Assembly: GCA_036172245.1 (NCBI GenBank)
Contig: JAYWIR010000024.1
Location: forward strand, 1,860,001-1,924,000
DNA: 64,000 bases
Direction: 5' to 3'
Source of the DNA: Raillietiella orientalis
Taxonomy: Eukaryota
The notes under the pieces were generated by a model. The model was not told where the DNA came from, ran no database searches, and worked only from the letters and a program-made list of their open reading frames with translations. Position numbers and translations under genes: made by a program. Shown here piece after piece: positions 1,782-32,759 of this stretch. How positions within the stretch are numbered: position 1 is the first letter of the stretch; each line of letters begins with the position of its first letter.

Positions 1782-1831
1782 TTAAATAAATCAGTCGGGA
1801 ACACTGGCGTGTTCACGACTGATTTATTTAA
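1782..1831. repeat. Near-perfect 50-bp palindrome with AATAAA on both strands
   Basis: TTAAATAAATCAGTCGGGAACAC-TGGC-GTGTTCACGACTGATTTATTTAA: 23-bp arms, 22/23 complementary, 4-nt loop. Confidence 0.9.
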
Positions 1832-2480
1832 GACTTCCCAATCGAAGACAAAAGGGGAGAGTCTCCCGACACATAGGTCAGGACAAGTTGAGAATGGGTG
1901 GGAGGCGACAAGAAATAAATAAGGGGTGGGTGGGGATAGGGGTTACCGGTGTCGATCGTTCCTTCCTTTTCGAGCTGGCGCTGGATGCAGGCAGCGGAGG
2001 GGAAGGGACAAGCAAAAACAAAAATAAAATGAAAAATGAATAAAGAAAACTCGAAGCGGTACGGGAAGGGATCACTGTCCGCCGGAGGGCGTCCTCTGCG
2101 TCCTTTCCAGGATGCCGGCAAGTTCCATCAGAGTATGGGTCCCACGTGAGGCCATCTTGCTGCCGTCCGCAGGAAGCGGGCAGAGGGAAGCGGATGGTGT
2201 CCTCATGATGTCGTCCTCCTCTCGTGTAGCTCCAGACTCCACCACAATCCTGCGTAGGCAGCAGCAAAGAACTGCTGAAGATGAGACAGAAAGAAGAGCG
2301 TCGCTCACGAAGAGGCTCTTCATCACGTCCCTTGGGTTGACCGTTGCTGCACCAAGGGGAACCATAGGGCCGGAGGGCAGCACAGCCTGCTAGGAAGTGT
2401 AGGAGCTTGGATTCCCGTTGTCCGCACCTGCAACCACACGGGTAACCTCCCGTCGGCTGCGCCTGCATCTACAAGACGTG
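1809..2480 (-). mobile_element. Tx1/L1-clade LINE, 5'-truncated 3' fragment (family A)
   Basis: ORF2 C-terminal zinc finger (CGRCGQRESKLLHFLAGC), stop followed by TGATCCCTTCCCG, U-rich 3' UTR and AATAAA; resembles 25900-26616. Confidence 0.8.
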
Positions 2481-2489
2481 GCAGGCCGT

Positions 2490-3895
2490 CATAATGGCAT
2501 GGCAGAGCGATGACCGCGGTCACTGCACCCGTCGAGAGGCTCTTCCGGCGCGAAGACCTGCCGCAGCAGGTGGAGAGTGGTGCCCTCCTTATGCAGGAGC
2601 GGTGGCGTCAGCCTCTGCCACAGTTCGTAGAGGACACAGAGGTCCAAAAGCAGGCGCGGAGGGATCGACTTCGCCGACCCCGCATCTGACCCGCAGAGTT
2701 TTCGGAAACGAGAGTGCCGGTGTCCGTCACACTGAAATCCCCAGCTCATGAAGAGCACTGCCTCCAGGAGAGCGGGAGCGTAAAAGCGTTCAGGCATTAG
2801 GAGAGGGGGAGGGAGGCGACACTCGGAATCTGACACCGCCGAAGGAGTCCCGTCTCCGGAGCACGCAGAGTGGCAGCATCCTTCGACTCGCGCGTCTCCC
2901 AGCCTCCAAGGAGTTTCTTCTTTTCCCCTGCGATGGCGCGGAACTCCCAGCTCGCCATCGGTGTGCAGCCATCTCCGCTCGCCCTGAGAGCGGACGGCTC
3001 TGCGGTAAGGGGTGTGGCGGACAGGGTCAACCTCTCTGACGTGTTCTGCTTCGCCATTTCCAAAGGTAATGGTAGGAAGTGTTCTCAGGAGACAAAGTTC
3101 CCCCAGGCGTATTCCCTAGAAGGTCACCATCTCTGCAGGGAAGCAGTCCCTCCACCCTCTTGGAGAGCCTGTCGGAGGTCGCCTCATCGAGACCAGGTGC
3201 TTAGGGCCATCAACCGATGCTTTTAGCACTCCCTCTCTTAATGGGCAGGGCTCTCCAGAGCACCGTCTGGTTTCCCACTGTTCCCACGCCTTCTCTTTGA
3301 ACGCTTCGCCGCTGGCAGGGCCGACTCGAAGTCCCGACGATCCTGCGGATGCTCTTCAGCCCTTCCAGAGCCACCATAGAGTTCACGGGAAGGGGTGGAC
3401 GAGCATCTTCCACACCCCCTCTGGAGCACGGTCCCGCTGAAGGTTCAAGTCCATTCTCAGGAATAGGCTGGCTGGGGACGGACTGCCAGCGTTTCGGGAG
3501 ACCCTCCCGTCTTCCGGCAGTATCAGACTGCAGCTCGGATGCAGCCACCAAGGGCGCTGTCGAGTGAGTCTTCTCCTCCACCCGTCACATCCTGTTCACG
3601 CCGCTCCCTCTCGAAGACGCCATCGTGGGCCACATCCGCGTGGACGATCCACGGGCGGCAAGCGTTCTTCATCGAGCAGAAAACGCCCCTCTTGATGCAA
3701 GATTTTGCCCCATGTGGGATGTACGACCCGTCCTCTGTGGTCGCGGAGGCTGCGTCGTGGCGCAAAGTGGGCAGTAACCTCCCTCTCTCGCGCACCCATA
3801 GAAAGTCGAATCTACGAACGCGGCTTTCGACTCTCAGGCCGGAGGTAAAAGATCCATGGTTGGACCTCCAGGAGGGAGTGGGGCGAGCTGCCTAG
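2490..3895 (-). mobile_element. Degenerate Tx1 ORF2 C-terminal fragment (family B-like), 3' end missing
   Basis: WGFQCDG...RLLLDLCVLYELWQRL...LLRQVFAP aligns by eye with the ORFs at 4372-4869 and 10554-10914; the right boundary is approximate. Confidence 0.65.
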
Positions 3896-3910
3896 GAAGA
3901 GGGGGGGGGG

Positions 3911-4023
3911 ATAAGCAGTATCCTGCAACAACGGAAGCTGTCCTTCGCCGCCCACGCATCCCCTAAGGATGAGACTCACAGAACGGCACATCGGAACACC
4001 GCTGGAAGTCGACTCTTGGGAGG
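3911..4023 (+). pseudogene. Probable N-terminal remnant of a LINE APE endonuclease
   Basis: Open frame ISSILQQRKLSFAAHASPKDETHRTAHRNTAGSRLLGG; ExH...GG spacing like the APEs at 10130-10276 and 15844-16010. Confidence 0.4.
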
Positions 4024-5300
4024 TTTTTCACCCGGTAACGCCGGGGCGTTTATTTGAAGTCGGAAACACGCTGGTTCCCAACCGAAGACAGCAAGAAACA
4101 AAGGGGAGGGTCCACTGGCACACAGGTTAGGAAAACGGAAAGTCCGGAACGGGAGAGGAACGAGGGGGACAACAAAAACAAACAAAATGGGAGGAGAGGG
4201 GCAGGGATCTTTGGTGACGTTCCGTAATCACTGGGATACAAAAAAAAAGCACCAAGAAAGCTATGGAGCGAATGGAAACAGGGAATGAGAAAAATAATAA
4301 TAAAATGAATGGAGGGAAGGGATAAGCATCACCGGGTTCGCTGTTCCAAACCGTTCATCAACCGGCGTTCATCAACAGGGGGTGCCGGCGATCTCTTCCT
4401 TTGTTTCTTCTCCCAGGTAAGGCCACCTTGCAGCCTCTCCGATGTGAATGGCTGACATCCTGGAGACCTCTCTTCGATACACGGTGATTTCCTGCACGTG
4501 TCGGGCCAAAACGATGGCGCGGATGCGACTCACGGTTGCAATAACAGCGCCCGTCGAGAGACCTCTGGGCGCGAAGAACCGCCTCAGCACGTCTCGGATG
4601 GTGTCCTCCTGGTGCACAAGTGCTGCTGCCAGCCTCCTCCACAGTTCTTGGAGAACATCACAGTCCAAAAGCACGTGCGGGATTGACTCCGTCGACCCAC
4701 ACCTGCCACAGTTCGGAGATGCAACCCCTCCGGAAACTCGATGCCTTCGCTCGTTACACTTGAATCCCCTGTAGATGAAGAGCAGTACGGCCTGCTTCCA
4801 GGCAAGGGGGAACAACGAACTGTCCACCAAATGAGGAGGGATCACTAGTTCTTCGGGAGCAACACTCAAGAACTCTCCCCATCAAAGGAGTCCCTTCGCC
4901 AAAGCACACGGAGGGGCAACATCCGCCAGCTCGCCCGTCTTCCAGCCGCCGAGGAGTCCAGTTGTTCCTGCGAGTGCAGGAAAACTCCCACCTCGCCGGT
5001 TGCCTACTGTCGTCTCTTGTCCTGAGGGCAGAAAGCGCTGAGGCGACGGGTGTGGTGGCCAAGGACGAAAACTTCAGGATGCTAAAGCCGGCATCCCGCC
5101 ACGGAGTAGCCAAGTCTTTGAGGCGGATCCTGGACCTCGCGGATCTGGATCGGGACCTCTTTGCCAGTGGTCGCCCCTTGCGAGGGCTTTCGTAGGGCTG
5201 CTGGCAAAGACGCAGTCGGAGGGCTTGTGCCAACAGCGGCACCCTCCATTGCGAGCACCGTCTCCCCGACGGGGTTTGCAGGAAACCCGGCAGAGCAACG
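4024..5300 (-). mobile_element. Tx1 LINE 3' fragment (family B)
   Basis: ORF 4372-4869 with CGRCGSTESIPHVLLDC zinc finger; RRGMPAL region near 5100 resembles the GGLGL motif; terminus AATAAACGCCCCGGCGTTACCGGGTGAAAAA. Confidence 0.85.
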
Positions 5301-7240
5301 AAGGGACGCGGAGGTTAAGGAAGGCGCCCGCAAAGGGTCAATGCCTTACAAAACGCAAAGCAGTCCGGGAGAGGAGGAGGATCAGGGAATGCGGGCGGCT
5401 TCCTGTTTTGAGAGGGAAGGAGAGGCTCAGACCTGGACCTCGAGGGGAGGACGAGGGAGCCGGGGGGGGGAGGGGAGGAAGGGGAATCTTCCATCAGACC
5501 ACCCGCAGGAGTCGGAAGCCGCCCCGGGCCCGACTGCCTGGAGTCCATCACGCACGCCTCCGTGGCGAGTGGGGCCTGCGCGGTCTCCCCGGGATCGGGC
5601 GCGTTCCCGGGACTACCCGCGTCTCGTCCGCGGAGGGAATCCACGCCGCCGCCTCCGCTTCCCGTGGTATCGTCGCAATGGACCGGCCGGTCGTGGCAGC
5701 ACGGATCCAGAACGGCGGTCTGAGGTCCACCCTTGTCCTTCGAGAGGAAGAGGAGGAACTTCGGTCCCGTCGCGGGTTCCCGGACGTCCGGGGTAGGGGA
5801 GGGGCGGCATCCGGCGGGGGGGGCAGGTGCGTTCCGACTATCTCGCGGGCGCTGCCTCGCAGCTCGGAGGGACGACATCCGGCGGACCGGACCGGAATGG
5901 GGTCTCGTGAGTCCTCCCGGTAACGGGTCCGGTGCTGCAGGAAGAGGAACGACCCCTCGAGTCCCCTTTCCCCCTACGGAGACTTTAGCGGAGACCCGGC
6001 GCTCCCGTTCTCGGCCCTGCACCCATCTTAGGAATCCCGCAGGGCCAAGCAGGGCCTCTCAGGGAGGAGATTGCGCACGCAGCCCTCTCTTTTGGACCTG
6101 CCGCCGTCAGGGGACGCGCGCGCCGCGAGGATGGACGGCGTTCCCTGCCGGCCGAGGCAAACCCCCACGCACCCTCAAGCGGCGACCGGGGAAGGAGCGC
6201 GCGTCGGACTGGAGGACTCCCTGGTTTCCCCAGAAACAGGTCGCTCCTCTCCCTGCCGGTCCTCCCTTCGCGCCACCGGATGGGGAGGACAGGCCGGTGG
6301 TCTTTCGGTAGTTGTTGATCCCAAGTCTGCCCCTCATGGGGTGAGGAAACCCAGAAGGGGTCAAAGCCCTCAGGGAGAACGTCGAGCGCGTCGCCGCCGC
6401 TGGTCAAAGCCATGCACTTCCCGGGGCCGAGGACTTCGGGCGGCTTCATTCCTGCTCCTGCTTCTTTCGTCGGAATCTCCAAAACCGCTTCCGCAGGAAA
6501 CTGGGAATCTTTTCGGGAGCATTTCTCTCTCCCTCCTCCTCCTCCCCCAGAGGGAGTTCCTCCTTGTCTTCGGGGTCTTGTTCGTCACTCGTTCCTCCCC
6601 TCCGGCAGCGGGAAAGGGGGAAGGAGAAGAGGGAAGAGGAAAGGGAAATCCCTCGGGTCCTCCCAGCATCCAAGTCAGCGCAGCGGCGTGGAACCCCTGG
6701 CGTGCAGATCGCCACCTGGATTTCCCGTCGGAATGGTGTTGGCCGGCCGGCACGGTCTGCACCGGAAACGCGTAGGGACTTCGTCGTCCCCAAGGGGAGA
6801 AAGGGAGGGGCAAGAAACGCAATCCCCTCCGCTGAGGGGATGAGAGATGCTTTCCGATTCGGAACCCCCTGGGCTGCCCTCCTCAGGAGGGCGCTTCCGG
6901 AAGGTCCTCTTCCTCTCACGGACCCCCAGGGGGTTCCTTCCTCCCGGCTGCGGGGGACGTTGCCCGGGTTCCCTTGCAGTCCTCCTTCACGAGAAGCTCG
7001 CGGGCAGCCTCTCGTGAATTCGCCTCCGGAGGGGTCTCTCGATCTTTGGGGAACGTGGTCTCCCTGTAGGACCGGCTCCTCCCTTCCTTCCTGCACCCCT
7101 CGACCCCCGGGCGGAGCGGCGCTCGCGTTCCGAGACGGAGGGTTCAAGAGTCGACCGACCTCAGAACTGATCCCCTCTGGCGCGTGCCGGGCAAAGCGCC
7201 AGAGGGACCCTCGTGGGCATGGTGGGTTGAGGCAGGTCAA
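5300..7240 (-). mobile_element. Highly degenerate, probably LINE-derived DNA
   Basis: GC-rich, no clean domain; weak resemblance to ORF2 C-terminal segments around 5500-5760; enclosed by LINE fragments. Confidence 0.25.
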
Positions 7241-7570
7241 GGAAGGGATTTTTATCCAGGCTCTCCGGGCGCTTCCCTTTGCCCCGCAGTGCTTTCAGCG
7301 AGGCCCCTGCCTGGGGAACAGGCAGGAAGCGAAGAAGAAGGGCAGAGAGGATAGAAGCGAAACGCGAAGGGCCGCCTGCGGGATAAAAAAGAAAAACAGA
7401 AGGGAGGAGGGAAGGGGGAATCGTCCCCCCACCCTTTTTGGGTAGCAGGAGTCCTCCGCACCCCTATACGGGACGAGTCTTGGGGGGGTCCACCCTGACG
7501 CGATCCGCGGGTTACAAAGTCGCCTACCACTGCACCCTGCCTCGGCAGGGCCGACCCGCAGGAATGACGG
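7240..7570 (-). mobile_element. Short 3' UTR-like retroelement fragment, homologous to 9815-10030
   Basis: Shared GCCCCGCAGTGCTTTC(A/G)GCGAG(G/A)CCCC, GAAGCGAAACG and GGATAAAAAAGAAAA blocks in both copies. Confidence 0.55.
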
Positions 7571-7573
7571 CGA

Positions 7574-8200
7574 GGTGTGCGGACGGTGTCAGGGGAGAGG
7601 GGGAGAAAAAAGGGAGTCCCCTACTGTGCTTCCGCGGTGGACACCTCTGCAGCAGCGGGCGCGAGCCGGAACCCGCTGCTGGACGGAGTGGGGCCGATAG
7701 GTTCGAGGGTGGGGGAAGGGGATTCCCGCATCATGTTGATGCTCCTGGACAATTGGGGGCTGCGAGACCTGCAGCCGCGTTTCCATTCCACAGTGCTTTA
7801 GCGAGGGAGGAACCTGGCTGCCTCAACACTGGGAGAGCCGAAGAGCGCAAAGGCATCGTACGGAGCCGCCATGGAAGGGAAAGGAGGGGTAAGAGAAGCT
7901 GCCTACCCCCACACCCACCCACCCACGTGCCCCGCGAGCACCGGGCTCGCCTGGACCCTTGTCTGGACAACGGCCGACTCCAGGATCCACCGATAACCCC
8001 TGCTGGAGCGGACGCTCAGCGCGCGACGACCGCCAAGCGGAACCACCTCCGAGTTCCTCAAGAGTTGGTCATTCGTTCCGATCCCCTGCGGCATATCAGC
8101 TGGCATCCGGTGAGAGAGCACGGGGGATGGTTGTGAACCAGCAGAGGTTCTCGCCGGTGGCTCGCGACAGCGGCATGGCGCAGCTGGCGAGGAGCGATCA
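7574..8200 (+). pseudogene. Degenerate APE endonuclease continuation
   Basis: VSGERGRKKGVPYC (like the SG...GVAIL motif), LLDNWGLRDL and RARLD; joins in frame to 3911-4023 if 4024-7575 is removed. Confidence 0.4.
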
Positions 8201-8259
8201 TCCCTCTTCGAGGAGCCCAACCCCAGACGAGCGCGGCGAGCGCCGCACCCGAAGCCGCA

Positions 8260-10276
8260 CGGAAGTGTTTTCGTTCGCTCCGCGGCTGGTGTGTCGACTA
8301 TCTTTTTAAGTGTTTTATGTGGATTCGGTGGTGGCTGAGGCAGCGATGTCTGACACCACCACCAAGGAAGGCTGTGGGGGAGATGTGGGTATCTTCCCCA
8401 GAGGCTGTGGAGGTAGGGGCGACCGCCCCTACAGAATCGTCCCTCGCGTCAGCGAGGGCATGGAACGCCGTGACCACGGCCCTGTCGCTGGAAGCCATGG
8501 CCAAACACCAAGCCTACTTGAGAATTGCATCCCAATCCTCCTCTACAAGGTAGGCAATTTGTATAATCCGGAGAGCGCGTGCGCCTTCTCGAAGGCGATG
8601 TACACTAGTGCAAGAGGCGTAGTGCAAGAGGAGCTTCTTATTATGACTTATTATTATGGAGCGGGAGTCGACGTGTAGAGGTCGTGTTTAAGGAAGCAAG
8701 CCTGACCCAGCGACTTCTGCGGAATCCTGTTGGGATGGGAAGCAGAAGACTCTTCCCGATAACGGTTGACCACTCGGAGGTGGTCCACCTTCTCAAGGTA
8801 ATGGCCAAATTGGCCGTGCGCACCGAACTAACAAAATACGTAACGGTTCACGCGCTGTGAGTGAGGCCGTCTCCCTTCGTGGAGCACAGCGGGTTTCCGG
8901 GGGGCCTTGCTGCAGAGCGGATCACCGTCCACGAGATCCTTGAGCTGCCCCATCAACTACACGTCGATCGGTTCCACTGCCACACTCAAGGACACTTGAA
9001 GAAAAGGTGTCATCAAACACAGTGCGAAGTGTGCGCAACGATGGGTCCCATGCCAAAAGGGTGCCGCCAAAACACAGTCCGCGTCGCGGCTGCGAAAAGC
9101 AGGAAAAAGCACGAGGCAAAAAGAGGAGAAAATCGCCGCGAAGAACGCGGAAAAAAAAACACAGCGACCAACGTTTCCCCAGCAACACCATGTCAGGTTA
9201 CCTCGGAAACCCCAGCGGAAGAAGCTGGAAACGTCGAGGAAGACGGCCAGGAGCCTGAATGGCAGCTGGTAAGAAACAGGGGAAAACAAAAGGAGAAGGA
9301 GAGGAGAGAAACGGAAATCGCGAAACTGGGCGAAGACAAGCCGAGACGCAACCCCTCGAAGAACTGCCGGGTAGCCGTCGAACGCGCTACCGCCATCGAG
9401 CGATGTACGGCAGCCGAGCACGCTGCTGCCAGCGTAAAACCCTCGGAAGAAAAGGAGGAGGGGAGCGAGGCGGTGGCGTCCTTCGCCGTCGTCGACGACG
9501 TCGAATTCTCATGGGCAGCGGAGGAGCTCGAAGCCATCCTGCGTAAACACCTCAAGGCGACGAAGGTCATGAGGCGTCCCACAACTCCGAAAGCATCCGA
9601 GATTTCGGACCTCGGACGCGGAAATCGGAAAGGCGTCCTCCGTCGCCGCACCCTCTCATAAGTCTGGACGAAAGTCCAAGACTCCCAGGAGGCACATCTC
9701 CTCTTCCGAGGGAGAGGAGGTGGCTTCTAGAAAGAGAGGGAGTAATGAGCGTCAGAACGCGGGAACCCTCGTCGGAGAAACTCCCACGTGCCGACGCGGT
9801 AGAGACGGCCCACAAGCCGGAGGGAATTTTTACTCGGTCGCTCCGGGAACTTCCCCTCGCCCCGCAGTGCTTTCGGCGAGACCCCGGCCTGGGAAACGGA
9901 AGGGGGGGGGGGCTAAGAAGGAGATCAGGGGGACAGAAGCGAAACGGGAAGGTCAGCCTTCCGGATAAAAAAGAAAAAAAGGAGGAGAAAGGAGAAGGGA
10001 AAGGAGAAGCGCTCCTCCCCTTTTTTGCGTCGCTGACAGCTCCTCCCATCCACTCAGGTGGACGGGAGGAGCCGCAATACCACGTTCCCAGCTTTAATGC
10101 CGGGAATCGCCCCCTGCCTCAAATCACGCATCGCCTGTTGGAACGTCAACAGGCTTCGCGACGACGGCAGGAGACGAGACGTGGTCGCCACCCTGCGGTC
10201 CTTCGACCTCTTACTCCTGCAAGAGATCTCTGCAGAGCAGGCACAAGATATCGAACAGATAGCGGGTGGCCAACTG
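8260..10276 (+). mobile_element. Tx1 LINE 5' part: 5' UTR, disrupted ORF1 (CCHC knuckles), start of ORF2 APE
   Basis: ORF1 pieces LLYKVG, FHCHTQGHLKKRC, CEVCATMG homologous to 16033-18679; TAATG at 10095-10099 opens MPGIAPCLKSRIACWNVNRLR...LLLQEIS. Confidence 0.85.
9815..10030 (-). mobile_element. Short 3' UTR-like fragment inserted near the end of ORF1
   Basis: Homologous to 7240-7450; absent from the equivalent ORF1 region of the minus-strand element; no TSD found. Confidence 0.5.
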
Positions 10277-11339
10277 TTTTTCACCCGGGTGCGGCGGGTG
10301 TTTACTAAAAACTATCTGGGAACAAAGTTCTAGACAGAAGGAACAGAAGTTTGAGGGGAGGGCTCCGCGACACGCAGATCGATAATACCGAAAGTCTGGA
10401 ACGGGAGGGAGGGATCACAAATAAATATCTAAAAAATAAAAAAAAAGATATGGGAGGTATGGGGACAGAGGTGTTGGATTCGACCGTCCCTTCCTTTCAG
10501 AACCGGCGTGGGATGCCGGAGATCTCCTTCCTCACGTCTTCTGGAAGATGAGTTCACCTAGCAGCTGTCGTCATGTCGTCGGCGCTTGCGATGGTATCTC
10601 GAGGGATCGCCTGTGACTCCAGCTGGAGGCGGACCGTGACGATGGCGCGGATGTAACAGACCGTTGCGACCCCCGCACCTAACGATAGGCTGCCTGGCGT
10701 GAAGAAGCGGCTCATCAAATCCCTCGCAATGTCCCCTTGGTGCAAGAGCGCTGAAGCCAGCTTCCGCCACAGTCGTTGGAGGACACTGCAGTCCAGGAGC
10801 AGATGCGGGAGCTGCTGCTGCTCCGCACCTTTTACAGTTCGGGGAGGAAACTCCTCCGGAAACAATGTTCGCGCGCTGGTTGCAATGAAAGCCCCAATGC
10901 ACCAGCAAGATCACGTCCTGCTTTCATGGAAGAGGGAACACAGAAGTGTCCACGCACGAGGGAGGGACCACAAGTTCTTCGGGGAGCACACTCAAGTTTG
11001 CTCCACCGAAATAGCCCCTTGGGGATATTGCGAGGCGTGGCGGAGTCTGCCAGCTCGCTGGTTCTCCAGCCGTCCATGGGTGGGGTTGCTCCTGAGATCG
11101 TGCAGCCGACCTCCCATCCCACCGGTTGGAAACTGCCATCTCTTGCTCTTAGGGCAGGCAGAGCTGCGGCAGGGGGCGTGGCGGACAGGCTAGTCCACTT
11201 GTCTTGATCTTGCCTCACATCTTCCAACGGAAGATAGGGATGGCAGCGAGTAGCCAGCTGTAGTGGCATTGCAGCTCTCGGGTCGCTTTCCTCTTTCAGC
11301 CGGGCGTCGCGAGGGCCGCAAAGGACGTGCACTTCGACA
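10277..11339 (-). mobile_element. Tx1 LINE 3' fragment (family B) inserted antisense into an APE gene
   Basis: PHLLLDCSVLQRLWRKLASALLHQGD; terminus AGTAAACACCCGCCGCACCCGGGTGAAAAA abuts APE codons GGQL; 5' side cut by the element starting at 11340. Confidence 0.85.
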
Positions 11340-12172
11340 TTTTCACCCGGTCAAGCCGGAGCGTTTATTTAAAAACTTACAGTATTTGCGGTACAAGGCC
11401 CCGCTGCGGCCAATAGTTCTATGGAGCTGTCGGGTGGTCGGTGCGCAGACCAACTTGACACTCCACGTCAACGGATGGGGTTGGGGGAAAAACAAAAATA
11501 AAAAAAAATAAAGAAAAAGAAAAACACTTGTCATCTGGAGGGCCGGGAAGGGATGACTGTCCGTTGCGTGGAGCTTTCATCCCTTGCAGGATGACGACGA
11601 GGTCCTGGTACAGATTTCCCAGGTGGGGCCATCGGGATGCTATTCGCAGAAAGCGAGCTGCATACTCCATGGCATCCCTTCCGTTAACATCTTCTGCTTC
11701 GTCGGATCCACTCCAAGCTGCCACAATACCGCGTACGCAGCAGAGAGCTGCTAGGACAGCGGCTGGCTGCAGGGCGTCCCGTACGAAGAGGAGCCGAAAA
11801 ACGTCTCTGGAAGGGCTACCTTCCAGGAACCCCAAGGTGGAACCGAACCGTTCCCACAGGGGCCGGAGGGCAACACAGTCAACTAAAAGGTGCGGGAGGG
11901 TTTCCCGCTCTCCACACCGGGCACCGTTTGGGTTCACACTTCCCCGTATCCAGTGATGGCGGCGTGCATTGCAGGGGAGTCCCCAGTGCAACAGCATAAG
12001 CGCCGACTCCTGCCATTTTAGAGGAAGGATCCTTGTTTCGGTTATCACTGGAGGTCACTTCAGGTCATCCGTCGTGATGCCGAGCAGCTCGCCCCATTTT
12101 TTTTAGTCCTTGCGGAAGGACGCTCTGGGTTGTGGCGTCCGCCAGCTGTCCCATTGTCCAGCCGCTCAGCAA

Positions 12173-13663
12173 CTTCTCTCTGCCTGCGATACGGCATCAG
12201 ACTTGCCACCTCGGCTTCCGGCTGTTCTGAAGCGCCCTCCGGGGGAAGGGCATCGCCGTAGCAAGGGGTGTCCCTTCCGCCCACGTGCAACTCGCTGGAA
12301 ATTCAAGAATTTCATGCAGAGTGCGGCGGGCGTAGATGCCGACTCGCAGGCAGTTCCACGTCTCGTGGTTCCTCTCATTAATCTTCGCCCACGTGCCAGC
12401 AGTCTCCTCCAGCCATGCGGAGGAGTTGGCGGGGCTGCAGAGCATCCAGCCGTTCTCCTTTGCCAAGGTGGACATGCGTCCGAGGAGCAGGCCGCATCTT
12501 CTTATCTTCCTTCCACGACATAAAAGAAGAGATGCAAGTCCTCCGGTTCCGGATGCACGTCTGGCGAGGAGGCGGGCAGGAACACACCAAAGGGTGCTCC
12601 ACAACTTCGCTGCGATGGCCAAGGTGCGCCATCGCAGCTGGATTTCCAAGCGCTCCAGTGTCAGGAGGCCTAGACCACCATCACGACGCGATGTGCACAA
12701 GTTCTTCAACAGGACTCGGGGCCTCCCTTTGCCCCAAAGGGCGATACGGAGGTGGTCCCTCGTCCGTTTCTTAAACTGAGGGGGGACGGGGCAAACAAAA
12801 AGCAGGGGGCGAACGTGGATGGGGACCGCGAACGTGTCCCATACCGCAGTCCTTTCCGGCAAGAGGAACTTGCCCTCGAGGAACGGGCCGATTGCCAACT
12901 CTACCTTCTGGAGACGGCCTGACCATGCTTCTGACGGGCAGAAGTCCCCCAGCGGAACGCCAAGGTATGTCAGATACCTGGCCGGGATCCCCAGGCGGAT
13001 CCAGTCAGGCCGTCCAACTCACGACGCACCAACCGCCACCATCGACGATTTTGCCCTGTTGACCCTCAGTCCCGTCCCGCGGCTTAGCAGATCGAAAAAA
13101 TATTCGACTGCCGTTGCCGGGGCAGACATTGGGAACAGGAGCAGCAGATCGTCGGCATATGCGGACACGGCAGGCGTGCCGGAACACGAGCTCGGCAAGG
13201 GGGCCAAAGTCGCCCTGTACGCTCTCAGCACCAACTCGAAGTAGGTGCTAAAGAGCAGGGGACTGAGGCTATCGTCCTGCCTGATGTCACGCCGTACCGG
13301 CACGCTGTACACGATTAGTCCTCTGAAAGAGATGTTCGTCAGCGCGGCGCGCCAGCAGGAGCGCAGGTATGTGAGCAAGGAGGGTGGGAAGCCCATTCGA
13401 TGCAGAAGTTCCAGGAGAAGCTCCTGGTCCACGCAGTCGAACGCCTTATGGAGATCGACCGCGATCGCTAGGGCCCCCTTCCCCGCCCGAGATTCCCTTC
13501 CCTGTCCGACTGGCGGCCCCAAAGCGGGGTTGTCGACTGATAGTCGTTTCATTGTGTCGCTCCGCTGCGTATAGAACCATGTGCTCGTGAAAAACAGGTT
13601 GGCCTCCATACTTCGCCCGGGAACAGCGTAAGTCTGCTCCGGGCTAATTATGGAGTCGGCCAC
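12173..13663. repeat. Direct repeat copy 1 (apparently identical to 20970-22460)
   Basis: Constant offset 8797; ORF-track translations inside the tract are identical. Confidence 0.9.
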
Positions 13664-14967
13664 TTGTCCCAATCACGCAGCCCACAGTCCGGCAATCAAC
13701 TTGGCGTCCGTATTCATGATTGTGGTCGGACGCCAGTTGCTTAACTTCCTGAGGTCTCCTCCCTTCGGAAGAAGCCTCACCCTGGCTGACCGAAACGAGG
13801 CGGGAACTTCGCCTTTGTCTCGGATGAACCTTGTCAACTCGAGCACCAGGGGGGTCAGCTCTGCAGCGAAGCACTGAAAGAACTCCGCCGGCAAGCAAGC
13901 CTCCCCTGGCGCCTTACGCCTCTTGAGCCTTTTAATCCCGGCGAGAATTTCATCGGTCGTAAAAGGCTCGTCGAGGCTTTCCTTCTCCTCCTCCCCTATC
14001 GCCAAGGCTCCATCCGAGAGCAAGAGCCATGAAGCGTCTCGTACCAGGAGTGCCCTGGCGTAAAGGGAGGAATAAAAACTCCTCACGAGTTGCCTTACCG
14101 CCGCCAGGGCAGAACGTTCCCGGTCCAGATCGTCCAGCAGGCTGGGCGACCCGGATTGCCAGGCTTGGCGCTCGGCCCCGCCTCGATACTCGGCCAGGAG
14201 ACGGACATTGAGGGTCCTTTCGTAACAACGGGCCTGTGAATAGCACCTTCCGTTGCGAGCCTCCCCTCGAAATCCGGTGCGCAGGCGGTGCATGGGGAAC
14301 TCCTCTCAGAACTCGCGGACTGAGTCCTTGAATCGGTCCCAGTTCGTGAGATTCTGGAGCTAACGCCTCTCAGGAATTGGTGAAGATGTTTTTTCTCACC
14401 TGAGAGTCTCGTCCAGTCTCCCGGCAAGTGCCACGCCCTGGATGGCAGTTCCTTGTCGCGCGGGCATAACTCGAAATTTAATCGGGAATGGTCCGACAGC
14501 GTCGACGGCAATTTTCCTCGTTCTCCGACCCGTGAGCACAGGTCGTCGTCGAGAAAACCGTGGTCGATACTGCGGACCATTGCTTCCACGTCCGGCAACA
14601 AGTTGCGCGCTCGTATGGAAGAGCACAACTCTTTCATCGCGTTCCCCTGTCCTCCAGGCTGATCTGAGAGCAGGCGGAGATTGAAATCCCCTGCTATCAG
14701 ATGAACCTTTCGCACGTCCATTTCCACCAGCCAGTCACGCTTCAGGATTTCCAAGAACGCATTTCGTTCCTGGTACCTCTGTTTACCACTGGGAGCGTAC
14801 ATGTTTGTGATGATGAGGTCGATCGAGTCGGACCATCTGAGAGTCAGTTGGCCGACCCGACTATCGTCATCAAAGCGCACGCCCTTCGCGGCAGCGTCGA
14901 CGGCTGACTTGACGAAGAACGCGACCCCACAGGTGTTCCGGGCGCCGCATCGCCAGTACAACCAACC

Positions 14968-15843
14968 AGTGATGACAGCTGCCTACCGGCGAGGTGGGAG
15001 GTCGCCTGCACCATTGCAGGAGCAACCCGACCCATGGGCGGCCGGAGGACTTGCGAGCTGGCAGACGCTGCCACGCCTCACAACATCGCGAAGGGTCTCC
15101 TTCGATGGAGCGAACTTTTGAGTGTGCCCCCCGAAGAACTTGTGGTCCCTCCCTCCTGTTTGAACACTTCCGTGTTCCCTTTAACTTGGAAACAGGACGT
15201 CATCATGCTGGTGCATTGGGGTTTTCACTCCAACCAGTGGATGAACCGTGTTTCAGGGGGAGTTGTCTCCCCGAACTGCAAAAGGTACGGAGAAGTGGAA
15301 ACGCTCCGGCACCTGCTCTTGGACTGCTGTGTCCTCCAAGGACTGGCGGAGGCTGGCCTCAGCTCTCCTGCTCCAGGGGGACACCGCAAGGGATTTGATG
15401 CGCCGCTTCTTCCCGCCAGGCAGCCTATCGTTAGGTGCGGGGGTCGCAACGGTCTGTTGCACTCGCGCCATGGACAAGTCCCACCGACAGCTGGAGTCCC
15501 AGGCGATTGGTCGAGAGGCCACCGGAATAGCCGAAGACCACATCACGTCGGCTGCCGAGTGGGCCCATCTTCCGGAAGACGTGAGGAGCGAGGTCTCCTG
15601 CATCCTCTGCCAGTTCTGAAGGAAAGGAACGGCCAAAGCCAAAGACCCCTGTCCCCTACCCTCCCCATATCTTTATTTATATTTTTTATATGAGCACTTG
15701 TGGTTCCCTCCCTCCCGTTCCGGACTTTCGGTTTACCGACCTGCGTGTCGGGGATCCCTCCATTCGTTTTTTTGTGTCCCTTGTCCGGGAACCCTGTTCC
15801 CGGATAGTTTAGTAATAAACGCCCCGGCGCACCCGGGTGGGAA
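14968..15843 (+). mobile_element. 5'-truncated Tx1 LINE (family B) inserted antisense into APE, 10-bp TSD
   Basis: TSD ACAACCAACC (14958-14967) / ACAACCGACC (15844-15853); removal restores IVGGRLYWRCGARNTCGVAFF; terminus AATAAACGCCCCGGCGCACCCGGGTGGGAA. Confidence 0.92.
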
Positions 15844-16032
15844 ACAACCGACCCCCCACTATCGTCTCGATCTCCTGGACGTCTGCTGCGATGATCACGT
15901 GGATCTCCTGCAGGAGCTCCAGGTCGAATTCTCGCAGGGTGTCGGCCGTATCTCGTCTGTTACCGTCGTTGCGCAGCCCGTTGACGTTCCAACAGGCCAC
16001 GCGGATACGACGGCGACAGGCGAGTCCAGGTG

Positions 16033-18679
16033 TTATGCCTGGAAACCTGGCGGTGGGGCTCCCGCCACCTTTTTGAGCTGGACGCTAGAAGGGGGGTGGC
16101 TTTCGCCCACCAACTCCCCATTCTTCTTAGGTGCCGACGTGTCCGGCTCCTCATGAGAAGGCGGTGTTTCGCCTACCTGTACGCCCTCCTCCATGGGGGC
16201 GGGCTGTTCAGGCTCGGCGCATGCAGGGGGTATTTCTCTCCCCTGAGCACCTTCCCCCATGGGAGTCGCCTGCTCGCCGGCTTCCGCGCGTGAGAGATCC
16301 CCGTCTTGGGCTCCCACGCTGCCGTCCAAGTGCACGGTGTCCATCGCATCCTTCTCTCTCGGAGCCGGAATGCACCTTCTTGGCTTTTGGGACTTCCGTC
16401 CCGCTTTCCGAGGAGATGCCTCCGCGGAGGAGGATGAACTTCCGGCCTCCCGGTCCGACTCACCTGAGGGGGCCACTTTCGCCGGAGCCGGCCTACTCAC
16501 GCCCTTGCTCGAGGGGTTCTGACGTTCGGCGAGCGCCTTGCCGCGAGCTCCTCCGCCGCCTTCTCGAAGGCCGCGTCCTCGCTGTCGGCGATGTTGTCGC
16601 TCCACTGACCCTCCACGCAAGCAGAGGGTGCGCCTTCGCGAGCATCGATCGCGGCGGGAACAGCGATGGAAGGAGTTTCGCCTCGGGTGGTGTCTGCGGG
16701 AACGGCAATGCGTTCCAGCGTCACCCTGCACTGACGGAGAGTATTTACTCGCGGCACGGATGTCACTTTCGATACGGTCGCGGTTTTCTCCTTTTTTTTC
16801 GGGACACTCTTGTCCTTCTTTACTTTTTTGGCTTTTACCAGCTGCCAGCCCTCTTCTCCCTCTACGATTTCGGGGACCTTGTCCTCCGAAGCCGGTTTTG
16901 GGGATTGGAGTAATGGCAGCTGTTCTCGGCCAGTTTCCCACATATTTGATTTTTCTTCCCCCGCGCGTTTCCCTTGCGCCTTTTTGGCGACCGGGGGAAT
17001 GGGGGTGGGGAGTTTCGGGCACACACAACGGACGTGGCCCTTCTCCCCGCACATGTAGCACTCGATGTTCGGGCGCCTTTTCCTCAGGTGCCCTACTGCA
17101 TCGCAGTAGCCGCAATATCGGGGTTTTCCCACGTACCAGAGGTTGACAGACTCGTCCGCGACCTCTAGTTTGTGTGGAAGCCCTCCCTGTTCATCAACAG
17201 TGACACGCGCTGCAGCCATGCCCCCGAAAAGGCTACCGTAGCCCTCGAAGATCGTAGGCTTCGGCCACAACGCGTGCACGTCTCCATATTTCTTTAACTC
17301 ATCACTAACCACAGACCGCATCATGCGCTTAGTGATGCCAGTGAGATGGACCACTACCGAACGGTCCATGGACTCCGGGAAGATCTTTCGGCCATCCATG
17401 ATCAGCAGGGTGTTGATCAGGCGCTGGGCCAAGCTGATGTCTTTGCAGACAAGCTCGACGCGCTGCGCCCCGCTGAGGACGGTAAGACCGTCCAGATCCT
17501 CTTCTTTCACATTTAGAGACTGCAACGCTCTTGTGAAAGAGCGTGCAGTCTTCCCATCAAACAAAGGGCCTACCTTATAAACAAGGGAAGGCTTGTTTCC
17601 GGTGGCCCTATATGCAGCGTGTTCGGCCAAGGCTTCCGAGCTAGGCGCGGCCACCATGGCGCTCCAACTCCTCGCTGGTGCCCGCGTCGGAGGCTTTGTG
17701 GTTAAGGCTTCCGCGCGTGGCACCATGCGTCGCGGGTTCGAATACTTCGGCAGATAACTTGACGCCATTGCGTCGTTTGGGTTCCGAGTTTCTCCTGCAA
17801 CGGCGCTAGTTTGCCGAGACATTCGGGCGTGGCCCCGGCGGTGGATAAAGCCGGCGGCCTCCCGATGAAGGCCGGAACAATGGGAGTCGACCTTCGGGTC
17901 CTCCCAGGAATAAAGGAGTGAGGAGTTCCCCCTCCTGTGTGCAAAGGAGAGTGGACCCCCGTCACCGGGGGGACCGCCTCCGGTTTCAAGATGGAGCAGA
18001 AGCCCTCACGGGCACCTCTCCAGTCGTTCAAAGGAACGGACCCCCCTGTTGGGGGGTCCCTCCGAGTCGTCGCCTCTTCACAGAGTGTGTACAAAGGAAA
18101 GAAGCTAAGCGAGAGCGATTCCCTGCGGGAAGCTGCAGCGCCCCTTCTGAGTTTCGGAAGCACCCCTGTGGGGGTTGTCTTCAGAGGAGTGAATAAAGGA
18201 GCGGTTCCCTTGCGGGTTCCCTCCGGAGAAGAAATTCCTAGAAGCGGATCCTTTCCGGGTTCCCTTCGGAGAAGTTGAAATGGAGAGGACCACCACCCCG
18301 CAAGGGGGGGTGTCCCTCCGGAGAGAATGAGGAAGAAGAGATTCCCTTCGGGGTTCCCCTTCGGAGACAACCAGGGTGGGAGGTGAGATCCCCCCCGTCC
18401 GGGGGGATCCCTCCCCAAGCGTGAGAGGAACGGACTCCGAGCCCTTCCTGGATTCAATAGGGCGGACCCCATCGCGGGGTGCCCCCTATCCTGAAGAATA
18501 TTACACTGAAGAATCACACGCCCCCCCCTGCGGGTTGCCGCGGACAGGCGTGGAAACAAAACTCCTCGCTGGTGGCAAAGAGGATCCCGGGGCAGATGCC
18601 CCCATCTCCGCAGGTTGTGAGGGGAGACTTGACTCCTCACACCTACCTCCATCGCGGTCTCCTTAGGCATCGCTGCCAT
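16033..18679 (-). pseudogene. ORF1 (gag-like, two CCHC knuckles), interrupted by a SINE at 17681-18559
   Basis: CGYCDAVGH and CYMCGEKGHVRCVC; removing the SINE and one TSD gives AEMGASAPGSSLPPARSWSAM, matching VEVGATAPTESSLASARAWNAV of the plus-strand ORF1. Confidence 0.88.
17681..18559 (+). mobile_element. tRNA-derived SINE-like element, 879 bp, 15-bp TSD
   Basis: Head with D-arm/A-box-like GGCTTTGTGGTTAAGGC and B box GGTTCGAAT; perfect TSD AACTCCTCGCTGGTG at 17666-17680 and 18560-18574; three further copies in the window. Confidence 0.88.
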
Positions 18680-18796
18680 TGGACACCGACGATCCACACT
18701 ACACACCACACAAAAAAATAAAGAAAACGCTTTTCCAGGGACTGGTTCACGGAGAGCCTTAAAAAACACGTCCGCCCAAACCAGGATTCGGAGATG

Positions 18797-19494
18797 CCAC
18801 CCGGATACGCCGGGACGTTTATTTAAAACCTCTTGCATGGTCAATACAAAAAAACGTGGTACAAGGCCCCACTAACGGCCACGCAACAACGGACTTGACG
18901 GGACACCGGGACGCAGCCTGGTGTGACTCTCCTCGGCAATGGAAGGGGATGGGGGAGAAAACAAAAATAAAAATAAAATTGAGAAAAAAAACAAAAAGAG
19001 TTTGGAGGGCCGGGAAGGGATCACATTCCACTACGGGGAGGGCCCATCCTTTGCAGGATGCCCTCGAGGTCCCCCTTCATTCTTCCCAGCTGGGGCCATC
19101 CGGCAGCTCTCTGCATGAAGCGAACTGCATAGGGGATGAATTCCATCTCGTTGGAATCAACATCTTCGTCCTGGGCATCACTCCATGCCGCCACGATGCC
19201 CCGGATGCAGCAAAGTGCTGCAAGGACTGCGGAGGGCTGCAGGGCGTCCCGCACGAACAGGAGTCGTAAAACGTCTCAGAGCTCGCTGCCCACCGGGACC
19301 CCGAGGGTCCTCCCAAAATGTTCCCAAAGGGGCCGGAGGGCAGCACAATCAACAAGAAGGTGGGGGAACGATTCACGCTCTCCGCACCTGGCACACTCAG
19401 GCTTTACTCTCCCCGCGTCCAGTGGAAGCGCCGCGAGTTGCTGGGTAACCCCCAATGCAACAGCAGCAGCGCCGATTCTTGCCACTTCAGGGGG
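18797..19494 (-). mobile_element. 5'-truncated Tx1 LINE 3' fragment (family A)
   Basis: CARCGERESFPHLLVDC; closely similar to 20130-20825; AATAAACGTCCCGGCGTATCCGGGTGG terminus. Confidence 0.9.
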
Positions 19495-20070
19495 ACCACC
19501 TACGTGGAAGAGATTGACGAATCTTTGGGCAAATCGCTCAAGAAACTCAACCAGCCCAGCGGTCCCCAAGAGGTCCGCCAAACGTTCCTGGAAAACAAAA
19601 TCGGCAATCTGAGGGAATTTATCCGGATCGCCTCCGCCTATGTCCACCCTCATCACTACCTGATCCTGCAGTCGCTGCTGTACATGGAGTCCTTGTGCTT
19701 CTCGCTGATAGACTTCCGCCTGCTGAGAACCGACGAACTGGCCGAGGTGTCCAAGGCCTACGCAACACTGACGGAGATTAGGCGGATGATCCATCCAGGA
19801 GTCGATCGGTACGGCCTCATTTTGGAACTGGAGCTAAGCCTCTACGGAAGCATGCGGTTAATCCTGCTGCAGAGGGAAGAAACGCAGTCCATCAGCTCTC
19901 TCGGCACTCAGATGGCAATGCGTGAAGCACAGCTGCAGTGGCTTAAAAATCTAATCAGTCTGCAAAAGAAGAACAATATCTTTAGCACCTGGGAGGTGGA
20001 GCAGATAGAAAGGAATATCCAGCTGTTCACCGAACAAGAGGACCTCAACCCAGATGACTCTGCACAATGA
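19495..20070 (+). pseudogene. 3' fragment of a SET/MYND (arthropod SmydA-like) gene, uninterrupted frame
   Basis: About 190 open codons with VHPHHYLIL and IHPGVDRYGLILELEL, resembling the SmydA C-terminal HPNHY / PG..R.RG..L.EL motifs; stop at 20070, AATAAA at 20107-20112. Confidence 0.65.
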
Positions 20071-20129
20071 CCTTCATCCCGTCTAGCAGCCGCCTCATCC
20101 TTCCTCAATAAAACCAGGATTCGGAGATG

Positions 20130-22468
20130 CCAACCCGATACTCTGGGACGTTTATTTAAAACTTCGCATTGGTCAATACAAAAAAAACGTGGTACAAGGC
20201 CCCACTAACAGCCACGCAATACCGGACCTGCCGGGACGCCGGGACGCAGCCCGGTGTGACTCTCCTCGGCAGTGGAAGGGGATGGGGGAGAAAACAAAAA
20301 TAAAATAAAATTCAGAAAAAAAAACAAAAAGAGTTTAGAGGGTCGGGAAGGGATCACATTCCACTACGGGGAGGGCCCATCCTTTGCAGGATGCCCTCGA
20401 GGTCCTTCTTCATTCTGCCCAACTGGGGCCATCCGGTAGCTCTCTGCAGGAAGCGAACAGTATACTGGATGACGTCCGTCACGTTGCAATCTTCATCTTC
20501 GGCATCACTCTAGGCCGTTACAATCCCACGGATGCAGCAAAGTGCTGCCAGGGCTGCGGCTGGCTGCAGGGCGTCCCGCACGAAACGAAGGCGGTAAAAC
20601 GTCTCTGGGGTTGCCACCAACCGGTATCCCAAGGGTCGTCCCGAAAGATTCCCAGAGGGGTCGGAGGGCAGGATAGTCAACTATTAGGTGGGGGAGAGAC
20701 TCCCGCTCCCCACACCTGGCACACGCAGGATTTACTCTTCCCCGCGTCCAGTGGAAGCGGCGCGCGTTGCAGGGTAGACCCCAATGCAGCCACAGAAGCG
20801 CCGACTCTTGCCACTTCAGGGGAAGAATCCTGGATTCAATTAGAACCGGGGGCCACTTCAGGTCATCCGACCGGATGCCGAGCAGCTCGCCCCATCTTTT
20901 TAATCCATGCGGCTGGACACTAGGGGTTGTAGCGTCTGTCAGCTCTCCCATGGTCCAGCAGCTCATCATCTTCTCTCTGCCTGCGATACGGCATCAGACT
21001 TGCCACCTCGGCTTCCGGCTGTTCTGAAGCGCCCTCCGGGGGAAGGGCATCGCCGTAGCAAGGGGTGTCCCTTCCGCCCACGTGCAACTCGCTGGAAATT
21101 CAAGAATTTCATGCAGAGTGCGGCGGGCGTAGATGCCGACTCGCAGGCAGTTCCACGTCTCGTGGTTCCTCTCATTAATCTTCGCCCACGTGCCAGCAGT
21201 CTCCTCCAGCCATGCGGAGGAGTTGGCGGGGCTGCAGAGCATCCAGCCGTTCTCCTTTGCCAAGGTGGACATGCGTCCGAGGAGCAGGCCGCATCTTCTT
21301 ATCTTCCTTCCACGACATAAAAGAAGAGATGCAAGTCCTCCGGTTCCGGATGCACGTCTGGCGAGGAGGCGGGCAGGAACACACCAAAGGGTGCTCCACA
21401 ACTTCGCTGCGATGGCCAAGGTGCGCCATCGCAGCTGGATTTCCAAGCGCTCCAGTGTCAGGAGGCCTAGACCACCATCACGACGCGATGTGCACAAGTT
21501 CTTCAACAGGACTCGGGGCCTCCCTTTGCCCCAAAGGGCGATACGGAGGTGGTCCCTCGTCCGTTTCTTAAACTGAGGGGGGACGGGGCAAACAAAAAGC
21601 AGGGGGCGAACGTGGATGGGGACCGCGAACGTGTCCCATACCGCAGTCCTTTCCGGCAAGAGGAACTTGCCCTCGAGGAACGGGCCGATTGCCAACTCTA
21701 CCTTCTGGAGACGGCCTGACCATGCTTCTGACGGGCAGAAGTCCCCCAGCGGAACGCCAAGGTATGTCAGATACCTGGCCGGGATCCCCAGGCGGATCCA
21801 GTCAGGCCGTCCAACTCACGACGCACCAACCGCCACCATCGACGATTTTGCCCTGTTGACCCTCAGTCCCGTCCCGCGGCTTAGCAGATCGAAAAAATAT
21901 TCGACTGCCGTTGCCGGGGCAGACATTGGGAACAGGAGCAGCAGATCGTCGGCATATGCGGACACGGCAGGCGTGCCGGAACACGAGCTCGGCAAGGGGG
22001 CCAAAGTCGCCCTGTACGCTCTCAGCACCAACTCGAAGTAGGTGCTAAAGAGCAGGGGACTGAGGCTATCGTCCTGCCTGATGTCACGCCGTACCGGCAC
22101 GCTGTACACGATTAGTCCTCTGAAAGAGATGTTCGTCAGCGCGGCGCGCCAGCAGGAGCGCAGGTATGTGAGCAAGGAGGGTGGGAAGCCCATTCGATGC
22201 AGAAGTTCCAGGAGAAGCTCCTGGTCCACGCAGTCGAACGCCTTATGGAGATCGACCGCGATCGCTAGGGCCCCCTTCCCCGCCCGAGATTCCCTTCCCT
22301 GTCCGACTGGCGGCCCCAAAGCGGGGTTGTCGACTGATAGTCGTTTCATTGTGTCGCTCCGCTGCGTATAGAACCATGTGCTCGTGAAAAACAGGTTGGC
22401 CTCCATACTTCGCCCGGGAACAGCGTAAGTCTGCTCCGGGCTAATTATGGAGTCGGCCACCTGCCCCA
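20130..22468 (-). mobile_element. 5'-truncated Tx1 LINE (family A) with most of RT
   Basis: RT from QVADSIISPEQTY through YADD, GGLGL, zinc finger, 3' UTR and terminal motif. Confidence 0.9.
20970..22460. repeat. Direct repeat copy 2 (apparently identical to 12173-13663)
   Basis: Constant offset 8797 from copy 1; identical ORF-track translations. Confidence 0.9.
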
Positions 22469-26853: not shown

Positions 26854-27777
26854 GGTGCGAGCAGCATCGGAGTTAGGAAGAAACTTCTGTGCACGTGGAC
26901 AACTCAGCAGCTCACGTCGCCTCTGCGACCCCGAGTGTCCCGCCGAAAGGACTTGTACGCTGGGGAGAGCTGCTCCACATTCCTCCGGAGGAGGTGAAGC
27001 GACCCCCAGAGCTCTGGAACTGTGGAGCCCTCCGCTCGAGTGGCAGGAGTTGGCATTGCTGGTGGTGCATGAGAGAATCCCGTTCAAAGAGCACCTTCAC
27101 CACTGGACACGAGGGAGCGTGGACTCTCAGTGCGGCAGATGCGGGAAGAAGGAGACTCTTCCGCACCTGCTGGTGGACTGTGCCGTCTGTCCTTCGACCC
27201 CTCTGAGATCGCCTCGTGACGATCCTAGGTATCTAAGAACTTAGAATGGGCAGGCCCAGGGACATTTTCAGACGCCTCTTTGTGCGTGGTGCCGCAATGC
27301 CGCCAGCCGTGTCCCTCGCAGTTCTCTGCCGTGTTCGTGGAATCACGACGGCAGCCTGGAACGCGGGAAGGAGTGGCAGCGACGCCATTCACTGGGCGCG
27401 GATCTTCCAGAGGAGCGCCTCGAGATGGCCTCACTCGGGAGAGACAAAACGGACAAAACTTGCCAGCATTCTGAGCAGGAGGCTGAGGACGTCTCTCAGC
27501 GACACGTGACTTCATACTCGGTCTCCTCTCCAATGAAACTTTTCCTCCCGTTTTTCCTTTTTGTTTGTCTGTTTGTTCTATTCCACCCCCCCTTCTCTTT
27601 TCCCAGTTTTCCGTTCCCTGTCGCTAGGGAAAAACGGACCTCGCAGGTCTACGTACCGGTCGTGGCAAGTTGCGTGCACGTGGTGAAGCCAAGTGTTTCA
27701 ACACAACTCAACATTTTCACGGGACTTTCATCATTATTTTGCTTACCAATAAACGCCGCGGCAAAACCGGGTGGAAA
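26854..27777 (+). mobile_element. 5'-truncated Tx1 LINE 3' fragment; left arm of an inverted pair
   Basis: CGRCGKKETLPHLLVDC; 26911-27777 nearly identical to the reverse complement of 32760-33625. Confidence 0.9.
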
Positions 27778-28642
27778 ACATGCCCTCTTTAATCGTTCCT
27801 CAGAACCGAGGAGTAGCCGAGAAGGGGGCCGCTCCTCCGGGTGCTGTCGCTTATTTCCAGTCGCCGAGAGCAACATCCTCGCCTCTACCCCTCACTCGCT
27901 CCATGAAGACACGACTCCTTGATGGAACGAGTCCAGAAGGCTGCCAGCGACCCCAACCAGGTGTCCATTCTGCAGAGGACTCCTTGTCGAGGTGTGACCT
28001 GGTACTGCGAAAGGAGGAAAGGGCTTACCATCTGGAGTCTGCTTCCCTTTGAAAAATACGATAGCGGTCTCCAGAAAAACTCGGGATGAAGTGAAGGTCA
28101 AACGTCTCGAGACGGCTCTCCTCTGTCCTCTGGCGGTCTTGAAGCCACGGTAAAGGCTGAGGCGATCGATTTTCTTATTAGCCTGTGGGGTTCATGTGGT
28201 GATGACTTGTATTTTTACAGACAGAGCTTTGGGTCTTTGAGCTTCTTTCCAGTGGATGGTTGATGGAGGATGTGTTTGCCATATCAGCGGCACTGCGGAC
28301 GGGCACGCTCCGACTTCGAAAGAGTGCCACCCGAGTGGTGGTTCCGTGGGAGGGTCACTTGTCTTCATCATGGAGCTCTTACGAGGGTTAGGCTGTAGCT
28401 GTTGTGCCGCCCGCGTGAGGGACGCTGGGGTAGGTATGGAGTCGCTGGAGCGCTCCGTGCAGGTCATGGGTTCGCAAGAACTTCTGGATCCTACCACGGA
28501 TTGGGACAGGTGGCCGTTTGAGCCTACTCGAAGCTGCTAAATAACTCGACTGACCTCGTGACAGCCCTCGTAGACCGAACAAGAGATCCCACCTGGAAAA
28601 GAAAGCCGGAACAAGAAAGTGATGGCTCACCGTTTTAAAACA

Positions 28643-32742: not shown

Positions 32743-32759
32743 TCATCCCAACGCTGGTC

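Follow-up and report, generated by a model that had tools for sequence, protein, structure and literature searches.

The stretch analysed here (the window) comprises 64,000 nucleotides of Raillietiella orientalis contig JAYWIR010000024.1 (assembly GCA_036172245.1, positions 1,860,001 to 1,924,000), and all coordinates below are counted from its first letter. Positions 1-34 kb form a GC-rich nest of fragments of long interspersed nuclear elements (LINEs), with a GC content of 55-64% compared to 47-53% in 34-44 and 52-62 kb. By tblastn with pieces of one of these elements (H2) and with a profile of 27 unrelated LINE ORF2 (second open reading frame) proteins, at least 11 LINE 3' parts were located in the nest on both strands, and H2 is the sole nearly full-length element mapped there. 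Two fragments, B1 and B2, are 5'-truncated copies of one family (family B); B1 interrupts the apurinic/apyrimidinic endonuclease (APE) region of another LINE, H1, and B2 interrupts that of H2 (Table 1).

Table 1. Features of the nested LINEs and of the B insertions (window coordinates)
Feature	Position	Strand	Basis or remark
B1, 5'-truncated family B copy (ORF2 C-terminus and 3' untranslated region)	10278..11339	-	3' end at 10278
B2, 5'-truncated family B copy within H2 APE, antisense to H2	14968..15843	+	Alignment with B1 ends exactly there
Target-site duplication, copy 1	14958..14967		ACAACCAACC, read from the sequence
Target-site duplication, copy 2	15844..15853		ACAACCGACC, 9/10 identical to copy 1
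H1 ORF1 (RRM-like region and Cys-His knuckles)	8446..9661	+	tblastn with H2 ORF1
H1 ORF2 start, APE N-terminal part, ending ...QEISAEQAQDIEQIAGGQL at the junction	10037..10277	+	Pfam Exo_endo_phos, E 6.9e-6
H2 5' part	15844..18005	-	ORF1 16497-18005, inter-ORF spacer, APE N-terminal part
H2 APE N-terminal part, ending ...QEIHVIIAADVQEIETIVGGRL at the junction	15844-16084	-	APE and ORF2 profiles
H2 3' part: APE body, reverse transcriptase, C-terminal domain, 3' untranslated region	11340..14967	-	ORF2 profile; Pfam RVT_1, E 2e-11
B3, related but distinct family, ~68% identical to B1/B2	4025..5104	-	blastn, nhmmer
LINE 3' ends with terminal hairpin	4025, 10278, 11340, 15843, 18778-18800, 20111-20135, 23309, 27777, 32757		

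A single blastn self-alignment of 10068-11143 with 16062-14968 (77.4% identity over 1100 columns) runs through both host/insert junctions. Read in the sense of the host, with a slash marking the junction, the H1/B1 boundary is ...GGCCAACTGT/TTTTCACCCGGGTG, directly after 10277, and the H2/B2 boundary is ...GGTCGGTTGT/TTCCCACCCGGGTG, at 15844/15843. The two hosts are interrupted at one common codon and nucleotide (IAGGQL/ in H1 and IVGGRL/ in H2), and family B is antisense to the host in both. The original prediction, made from the letters alone, had proposed these same-codon antisense junctions; the sequence junctions and two protein profiles agree on them, and the coordinates it gave for the two inserts are correct. 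It had also placed the site about 15 residues after the QE motif, and the measured distance is 17-20 residues. In the 31 nt upstream of the putative nick, 21 positions are identical between H1 and H2 by hand count, including GATAG-GGG-GG.

The APE profile, for which 22 unrelated LINE ORF2 proteins supplied the N-terminal APE sequences, was searched against the six-frame translation of the window and gave three significant matches (E <= 1.7e-5), the next best having an E-value of 4.5. These matches are the N-terminal part of H2 (profile positions 3-55), the APE body of H2 (59-175), and the N-terminal part of H1 (4-50). Similarly, the whole-ORF2 profile matches H1 at positions 4-58 and H2 at positions 3-56 and then 59-276. 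At the level of residues, G77 of the H2 N-terminal part corresponds to profile position 55, the following G, R and L occupy positions 56-58, and the body restarts with Y at position 59. Because the profile is collinear across B2, removal of B2 together with one copy of the duplication leaves an H2 endonuclease without a missing or added position, as had been claimed for the 10-bp duplication in the original prediction. B2 is a clean insertion.

Judging by their sequences, the two hosts are different LINE families. The ORF1 proteins of H1 and H2 share 30.9% identity over 324 aa (tblastn, E 8e-31), and the APE N-terminal parts are 53% identical. ORF1 and ORF2 are separated by ~436 nt in H1 and by ~464 nt in H2. 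The 3' part of H2 covers positions 59-276, 387-539, 545-737, 755-882 and 983-1077 of the ORF2 profile, in order, and the 5' untranslated region of this element probably extends to ~18760. Approximately 1 kb upstream of H1 ORF1, the sequence at 7241-7446 is paralogous to the spacer between the two ORFs of H1 (9819-10033), with 74% identity. The homology breaks off ~64 nt before ORF2 would begin, and a second H1-like element may have been interrupted at that point. As for the inserts, B1 and B2 are present only as the last 0.9-1.1 kb of B, that is, ORF2 profile positions ~996-1055 and the 3' untranslated region.

The two B insertions are independent events, because B1 and B2 are truncated at different points, their hosts belong to different families, and the level of divergence shifts at the junction. 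The alignment of B1 with B2 ends at 11143/14968, the point at which H2 sets in again, whereas B1 runs on to 11339, a difference of 196 nt between the two 5' truncation points. The extra stretch of B1 is itself B sequence: 10883-11230 aligns with 4757-5104 of B3 (E 1.7e-6), this homology reaches 11230, past the 5' end of B2, and the reading frame of B1 is open to 11344. Since the duplication directly flanks the shorter copy, B2 is not a deleted derivative of a B1-like insertion. In addition, B1 and B2 are identical at 693 of 864 bases (80.2%), whereas the host flanks are identical at 121 of 177 aligned bases (68.4%; Fisher p = 0.0009); 400 nt further upstream, the hosts are 48% identical in a global alignment and are not alignable. 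The claim that the hosts are more divergent than the inserts is thus borne out, and the ORF1 and APE comparisons given above agree with it.

A single ancient B insertion multiplied afterwards, whether by segmental duplication, by 3' transduction, by gene conversion or by retrotransposition of the interrupted host, would fit the single continuous alignment across both junctions, the similar identities near the junction (68% vs 77%), and the conversion-like exact identity nearby. This account is nevertheless disfavoured and appears quite improbable, as the 5' truncation points differ with the duplication placed directly around the shorter copy, and as the hosts are not alignable upstream of APE, with ORF1 proteins 31% identical against inserts that are 80% identical. 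The same truncation point and the equal host and insert divergence expected of one insertion later duplicated are not what was found. Two other candidate interpretations were dropped. One took H1-B1 as an inversion of one element; B2, however, belongs to the same family and is an insertion flanked by a duplication, and its host has a different 3' end of its own. The other took the H2 flank at 11339 as an antisense motif A of reverse transcriptase (RT), where the B reading frame is in fact open.

The exact identity in question is a block of 1,491 bp shared by H2 (12173-13663) and a 5'-truncated LINE, e7 (20970-22460). Outside this block, H2 and e7 are ~70-82% identical on one side and unrelated on the other, and the block stops where e7 is truncated on its 5' side; it reflects either recent gene conversion or assembly smoothing. 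Such a block between elements that are otherwise ~75% identical is what a repeat mis-join in this LINE-rich region might leave, and the APE junctions could then be assembly artefacts as well. We regard this as very improbable indeed. The two junction loci are just 77% identical, so that neither is a collapsed copy of the other; the target-site duplication and the collinearity of the profile are marks of a real insertion; and the exact block ends ~430 bp from the APE region.

We favour, with moderate confidence, the interpretation that family B is a site-specific APE-type LINE that targets, in antisense orientation, the DNA coding for the APE N-terminal part of other LINE families. The window has two detectable APE N-terminal regions, each of which carries a B copy, and both window copies of the B1/B2 lineage lie at the APE site in the same position and orientation (n = 2). 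Other nested insertions are found at other positions: the element e8 lies in RT motif A of e9, and H2 lies in the ORF2 of B1. Because these other nested families use other sites, LINE-in-LINE nesting alone is insufficient to explain the APE position. By our estimate, a second random insertion in a host of ~6.5 kb would fall on the same base and strand approximately once in 13,000. The original prediction had inferred a site-specific family from two same-site insertions and a tentative third; the independent insertion at the same nucleotide and in the same orientation in two divergent LINEs stands, and the third case does not (see below). Its further proposal, that B disables competing elements, finds no support in the analysis.

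B may instead have no codon-level specificity of its own, the pattern arising from a Zepp-like tendency of LINEs to enter LINEs together with a local hot spot in APE, perhaps with the endonuclease of another family mobilising B in trans. The setting is suitable for this, as the 34-kb nest holds at least 11 LINE 3' ends, ~5 of which adjoin other LINE sequence, and consists of LINE copies within LINE copies, mainly 3' ends, in a GC-rich island. Zepp likewise inserts into its existing copies, according to the excerpted text of PMC8226300 and PMC3446292. All families in the nest share a terminal hairpin, through which such mobilisation in trans could operate, and the nearest relatives of B lie outside detectable APE sequence. 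However, the remaining nested insertions are at unrelated positions, both elements at the APE site are B, and no other family occupies that site in the window. Furthermore, a common hot spot would still mean a site-specific endonuclease, encoded by a different element. We hold this explanation to be unlikely, although it keeps some weight.

The 3' terminus common to the families of the nest consists of AATAAA, a hairpin CCCGG-N5-CCGGG, and TG(A/G)AAA, and B1 carries the hairpin variant CACCCG-N7-CGGGTG. The common stem-loop is likely an RT recognition signal, which would permit cross-mobilisation. It had been suggested that the G-rich targets resemble the terminal CGGGTG arm of the element; this likeness is not supported, and CGGGTG occurs in the H1 target only.

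From the established course of target-primed reverse transcription, by which B is taken to insert, the priming nick lies on the host-sense strand after ...GG(C/T)C(A/G)(A/G)(C/T)TGT, with ...TTGT before it in H2 and ...CTGT in H1. In H2, it lies between GGTTGT and ACTGG, and a second nick 10 bp away gives rise to the duplication. The choice of site may be made by a sequence-specific APE endonuclease, by analogy with Tx1L, R1 and other target-specific LINEs. This choice may be reinforced by antisense APE sequence in RNA read through from resident B copies, which could pair with the next target. The 3' end of the B RNA, inspected by eye against the primer strand, has no complementarity past 1-3 nt. 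Each insertion would truncate the host ORF2 after ~80 codons.

Several observations weigh against a site-specific family B. There are two events only, from a reader scanning many windows for oddities, so that a look-elsewhere effect applies. The 5' side of B1 adjoins the 3' end of H2 at 11340, which leaves B1 without a checkable target-site duplication, and the remainder of the H1 APE was not found anywhere in the window with the APE and ORF2 profiles. The contrast in divergence at the junction itself is modest, with the host flank 68.4% identical and the adjacent 3' untranslated region of B 76.9% identical. The 5' half and the endonuclease of B are not seen in the window, and, since the 3' stem-loop is common to all LINE families here, B RNA could be mobilised by the protein of another family. 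The 1,491-bp exact block in H2 means that recent conversion or smoothing has happened in the region. Finally, B3 and c1, the nearest B relatives in the window, are outside detectable APE sequence.

The tentative third case of the original prediction was B3. A profile of B1 and B2 matches it by nhmmer with E-values of 3.8e-100 and 7.4e-15 and reaches its last position at 4025, and a zf-RVT match (E 6.8e-4) is found in B3 and not in B1 or B2. The flank of B3 (3896-4024, ...DETHRTAHRNTAGSRLLGG) has no match to the APE profile at E <= 50 and none to the ORF2 profile at E <= 1, and no ORF1 was found upstream of it. Local alignments of this flank with the H1 and H2 flanks give scores that are equalled by 139 and 163 of 500 DNA shuffles, respectively; at the protein level, the scores are equalled by 606 and 796 of 2000 shuffles. 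Similarly, the H1 APE gives no alignment with 7446-7800, the stretch that includes the APE-like continuation supposed to resume at 7577. A more distant relative of B, c1 (~1790-3070, minus strand), is detected with the same nhmmer profile at E 1.9e-37. The specificity, if real, is a property of the B1/B2 lineage; its relatives may be aimed elsewhere, as is usual among Tx1 families (PMC4494074).

The established targets of site-specific LINEs are host RNA genes, simple repeats, telomeres, DNA transposons and LTR (long terminal repeat) elements. The comparisons that follow rest on excerpts of the cited papers. Among Tx1 families, Tx1L of Xenopus laevis targets the piggyBac-type transposon Tx1D, the crocodilian Tx1-Mar families target Mariner-N4_AMi, Tx1-9_AMi uses a site ~300 bp into Harbinger, and Tx1-8_Crp and Tx1-4_AMi target LTR retrotransposons (PMC4494074). 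These families are APE-type and, like B1 and B2, occupy a defined position in another multicopy transposable element, which in their case is set by the encoded endonuclease. However, their targets are DNA transposons or LTR elements, whereas that proposed for B is the endonuclease-coding sequence of other LINEs; their specificity is drawn from hundreds of copies and that proposed for B from two; and the label Tx1 for B, which is known from 3' fragments, comes from the original prediction. Other strictly target-specific LINEs are R1 and R2 (28S ribosomal DNA), Keno and Utopia (U2 small nuclear RNA), and Kibi and Koshi (microsatellites), and for R2 help in targeting from co-transcribed target sequence has been discussed (PMC4494074). 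These elements share with our interpretation of B the use of a multicopy sequence as a safe site, but they aim at RNA genes of the host or at simple repeats, and the target proposed for B is a gene of a mobile element. In green algae, the L1-type LINEs Zepp and ZeppL enter LINE copies already present and form GC-rich clusters in which 3' ends predominate (PMC3446292, PMC8226300). The nest in the window resembles these clusters in architecture, a likeness drawn from the arrangement alone; in contrast to B, Zepp is said to nest in copies of itself and to form tandem arrays, and none of the excerpts describes a site fixed at the codon level within the endonuclease gene of another family (PMC3446292, PMC8226300).

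A full-text literature search, with subscription journals and Repbase Reports outside its coverage, returned no report of a LINE that targets the endonuclease gene of another LINE family. If B does so, the target list of site-specific LINEs would extend to the machinery of their own kind, and B would be a natural example of a retrotransposon knocking out others. Its APE-type endonuclease would moreover recognise a long and definable site, as is sought in engineering enzymes for targeted integration, and such an element would help explain the growth of LINE-rich nests such as this one. More tentatively, B could be a hyperparasitic LINE whose endonuclease, possibly aided by antisense-APE read-through RNA, homes to an APE-gene site conserved across several LINE families, so that B gains a renewable multicopy landing site and inactivates its targets. 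That would amount to a new target class for site-specific retrotransposons and to direct conflict between transposons; we consider this extension somewhat less likely than not. With two events, the claim made for B is a well-founded lead, not a result.

Relatives of these elements were also sought in databases. The RT of H2 matches the structures of R2 and human L1 ORF2p with E-values of 3e-13 to 1e-9. A HMMER search with the H2 RT among 1.84 billion representative proteins returned 5,598 matches, just 3 of them at E <= 1e-30; P0001 and P0002 are short fragments that resemble H2, and P0003 is a protein of repeated RT fragments, and there are no full-length close relatives among the matches. 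Word-indexed searches of longer proteins gave no match with the H2 APE body or with the B2 C-terminus, and a word-indexed protein search with the open reading frame across the H2/B2 junction, as a query for further occupied sites, gave none. P0001 against prokaryote genome contigs retrieved a single unrelated LINE (26% identity) in a contaminated bin, and against viral contigs no match. A metagenome scan with the 3' motif gave 17 loci, none of which has LINE similarity (E < 0.2), so that they are chance matches.

In the remainder of the nest, e8 (23309-24514, minus strand) is a clean insertion, antisense within RT motif A (DLRK.FDCVD) of the plus-strand LINE e9, and is flanked by an 11-bp duplication, CAAAATTTCGA (23298-23308 and 24515-24525). 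The 3' end of H2 adjoins the B1 ORF2 in sense orientation, with the junction directly after TTCGACA (11333-11339). The lineage of related elements to which e8 and H2 belong may prefer nicking at TTCGA(C). The elements e6 and e7 (18758-18800 and 20091-20135) have in common a 21-nt tail, GGCATCTCCGAATCCTGGTTT, past the terminal hairpin and are divergent thereafter; the tail is either part of the 3' end of that family or a common target. Between e6 and e7 lies non-LINE sequence with an open frame (19520-20110, plus strand), which is richer in A+T and in leucine. No Pfam domain matches it, and it may be left over from the original locus.

Two inverted copies of 869 bp, 26911-27779 and 32757-33625, are 98.4% identical and have the same 5' start (CTCACGTCGCC...) and different sequences on both flanks, and may represent a young short element or a family still active rather than a segmental duplication. 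An RT fragment of another LINE (32016-32651, minus strand; Pfam RVT_1, E 3.4e-7) follows shortly after e11, beyond its 3' end and in the same orientation. At the start of the window, positions 1-860 are of low complexity, with several frames open, codons rich in His, Ser and Thr, and an internal repeat (16-253 vs 518-745, 69%). Towards the other end, a 511-codon open frame (62036-63568, minus strand) has a sub-threshold match to Tektin (E 9e-7, 28.4 bits; cut-off 34.3) and probably represents an exon of a gene of the host, a eukaryote with flagella or cilia.

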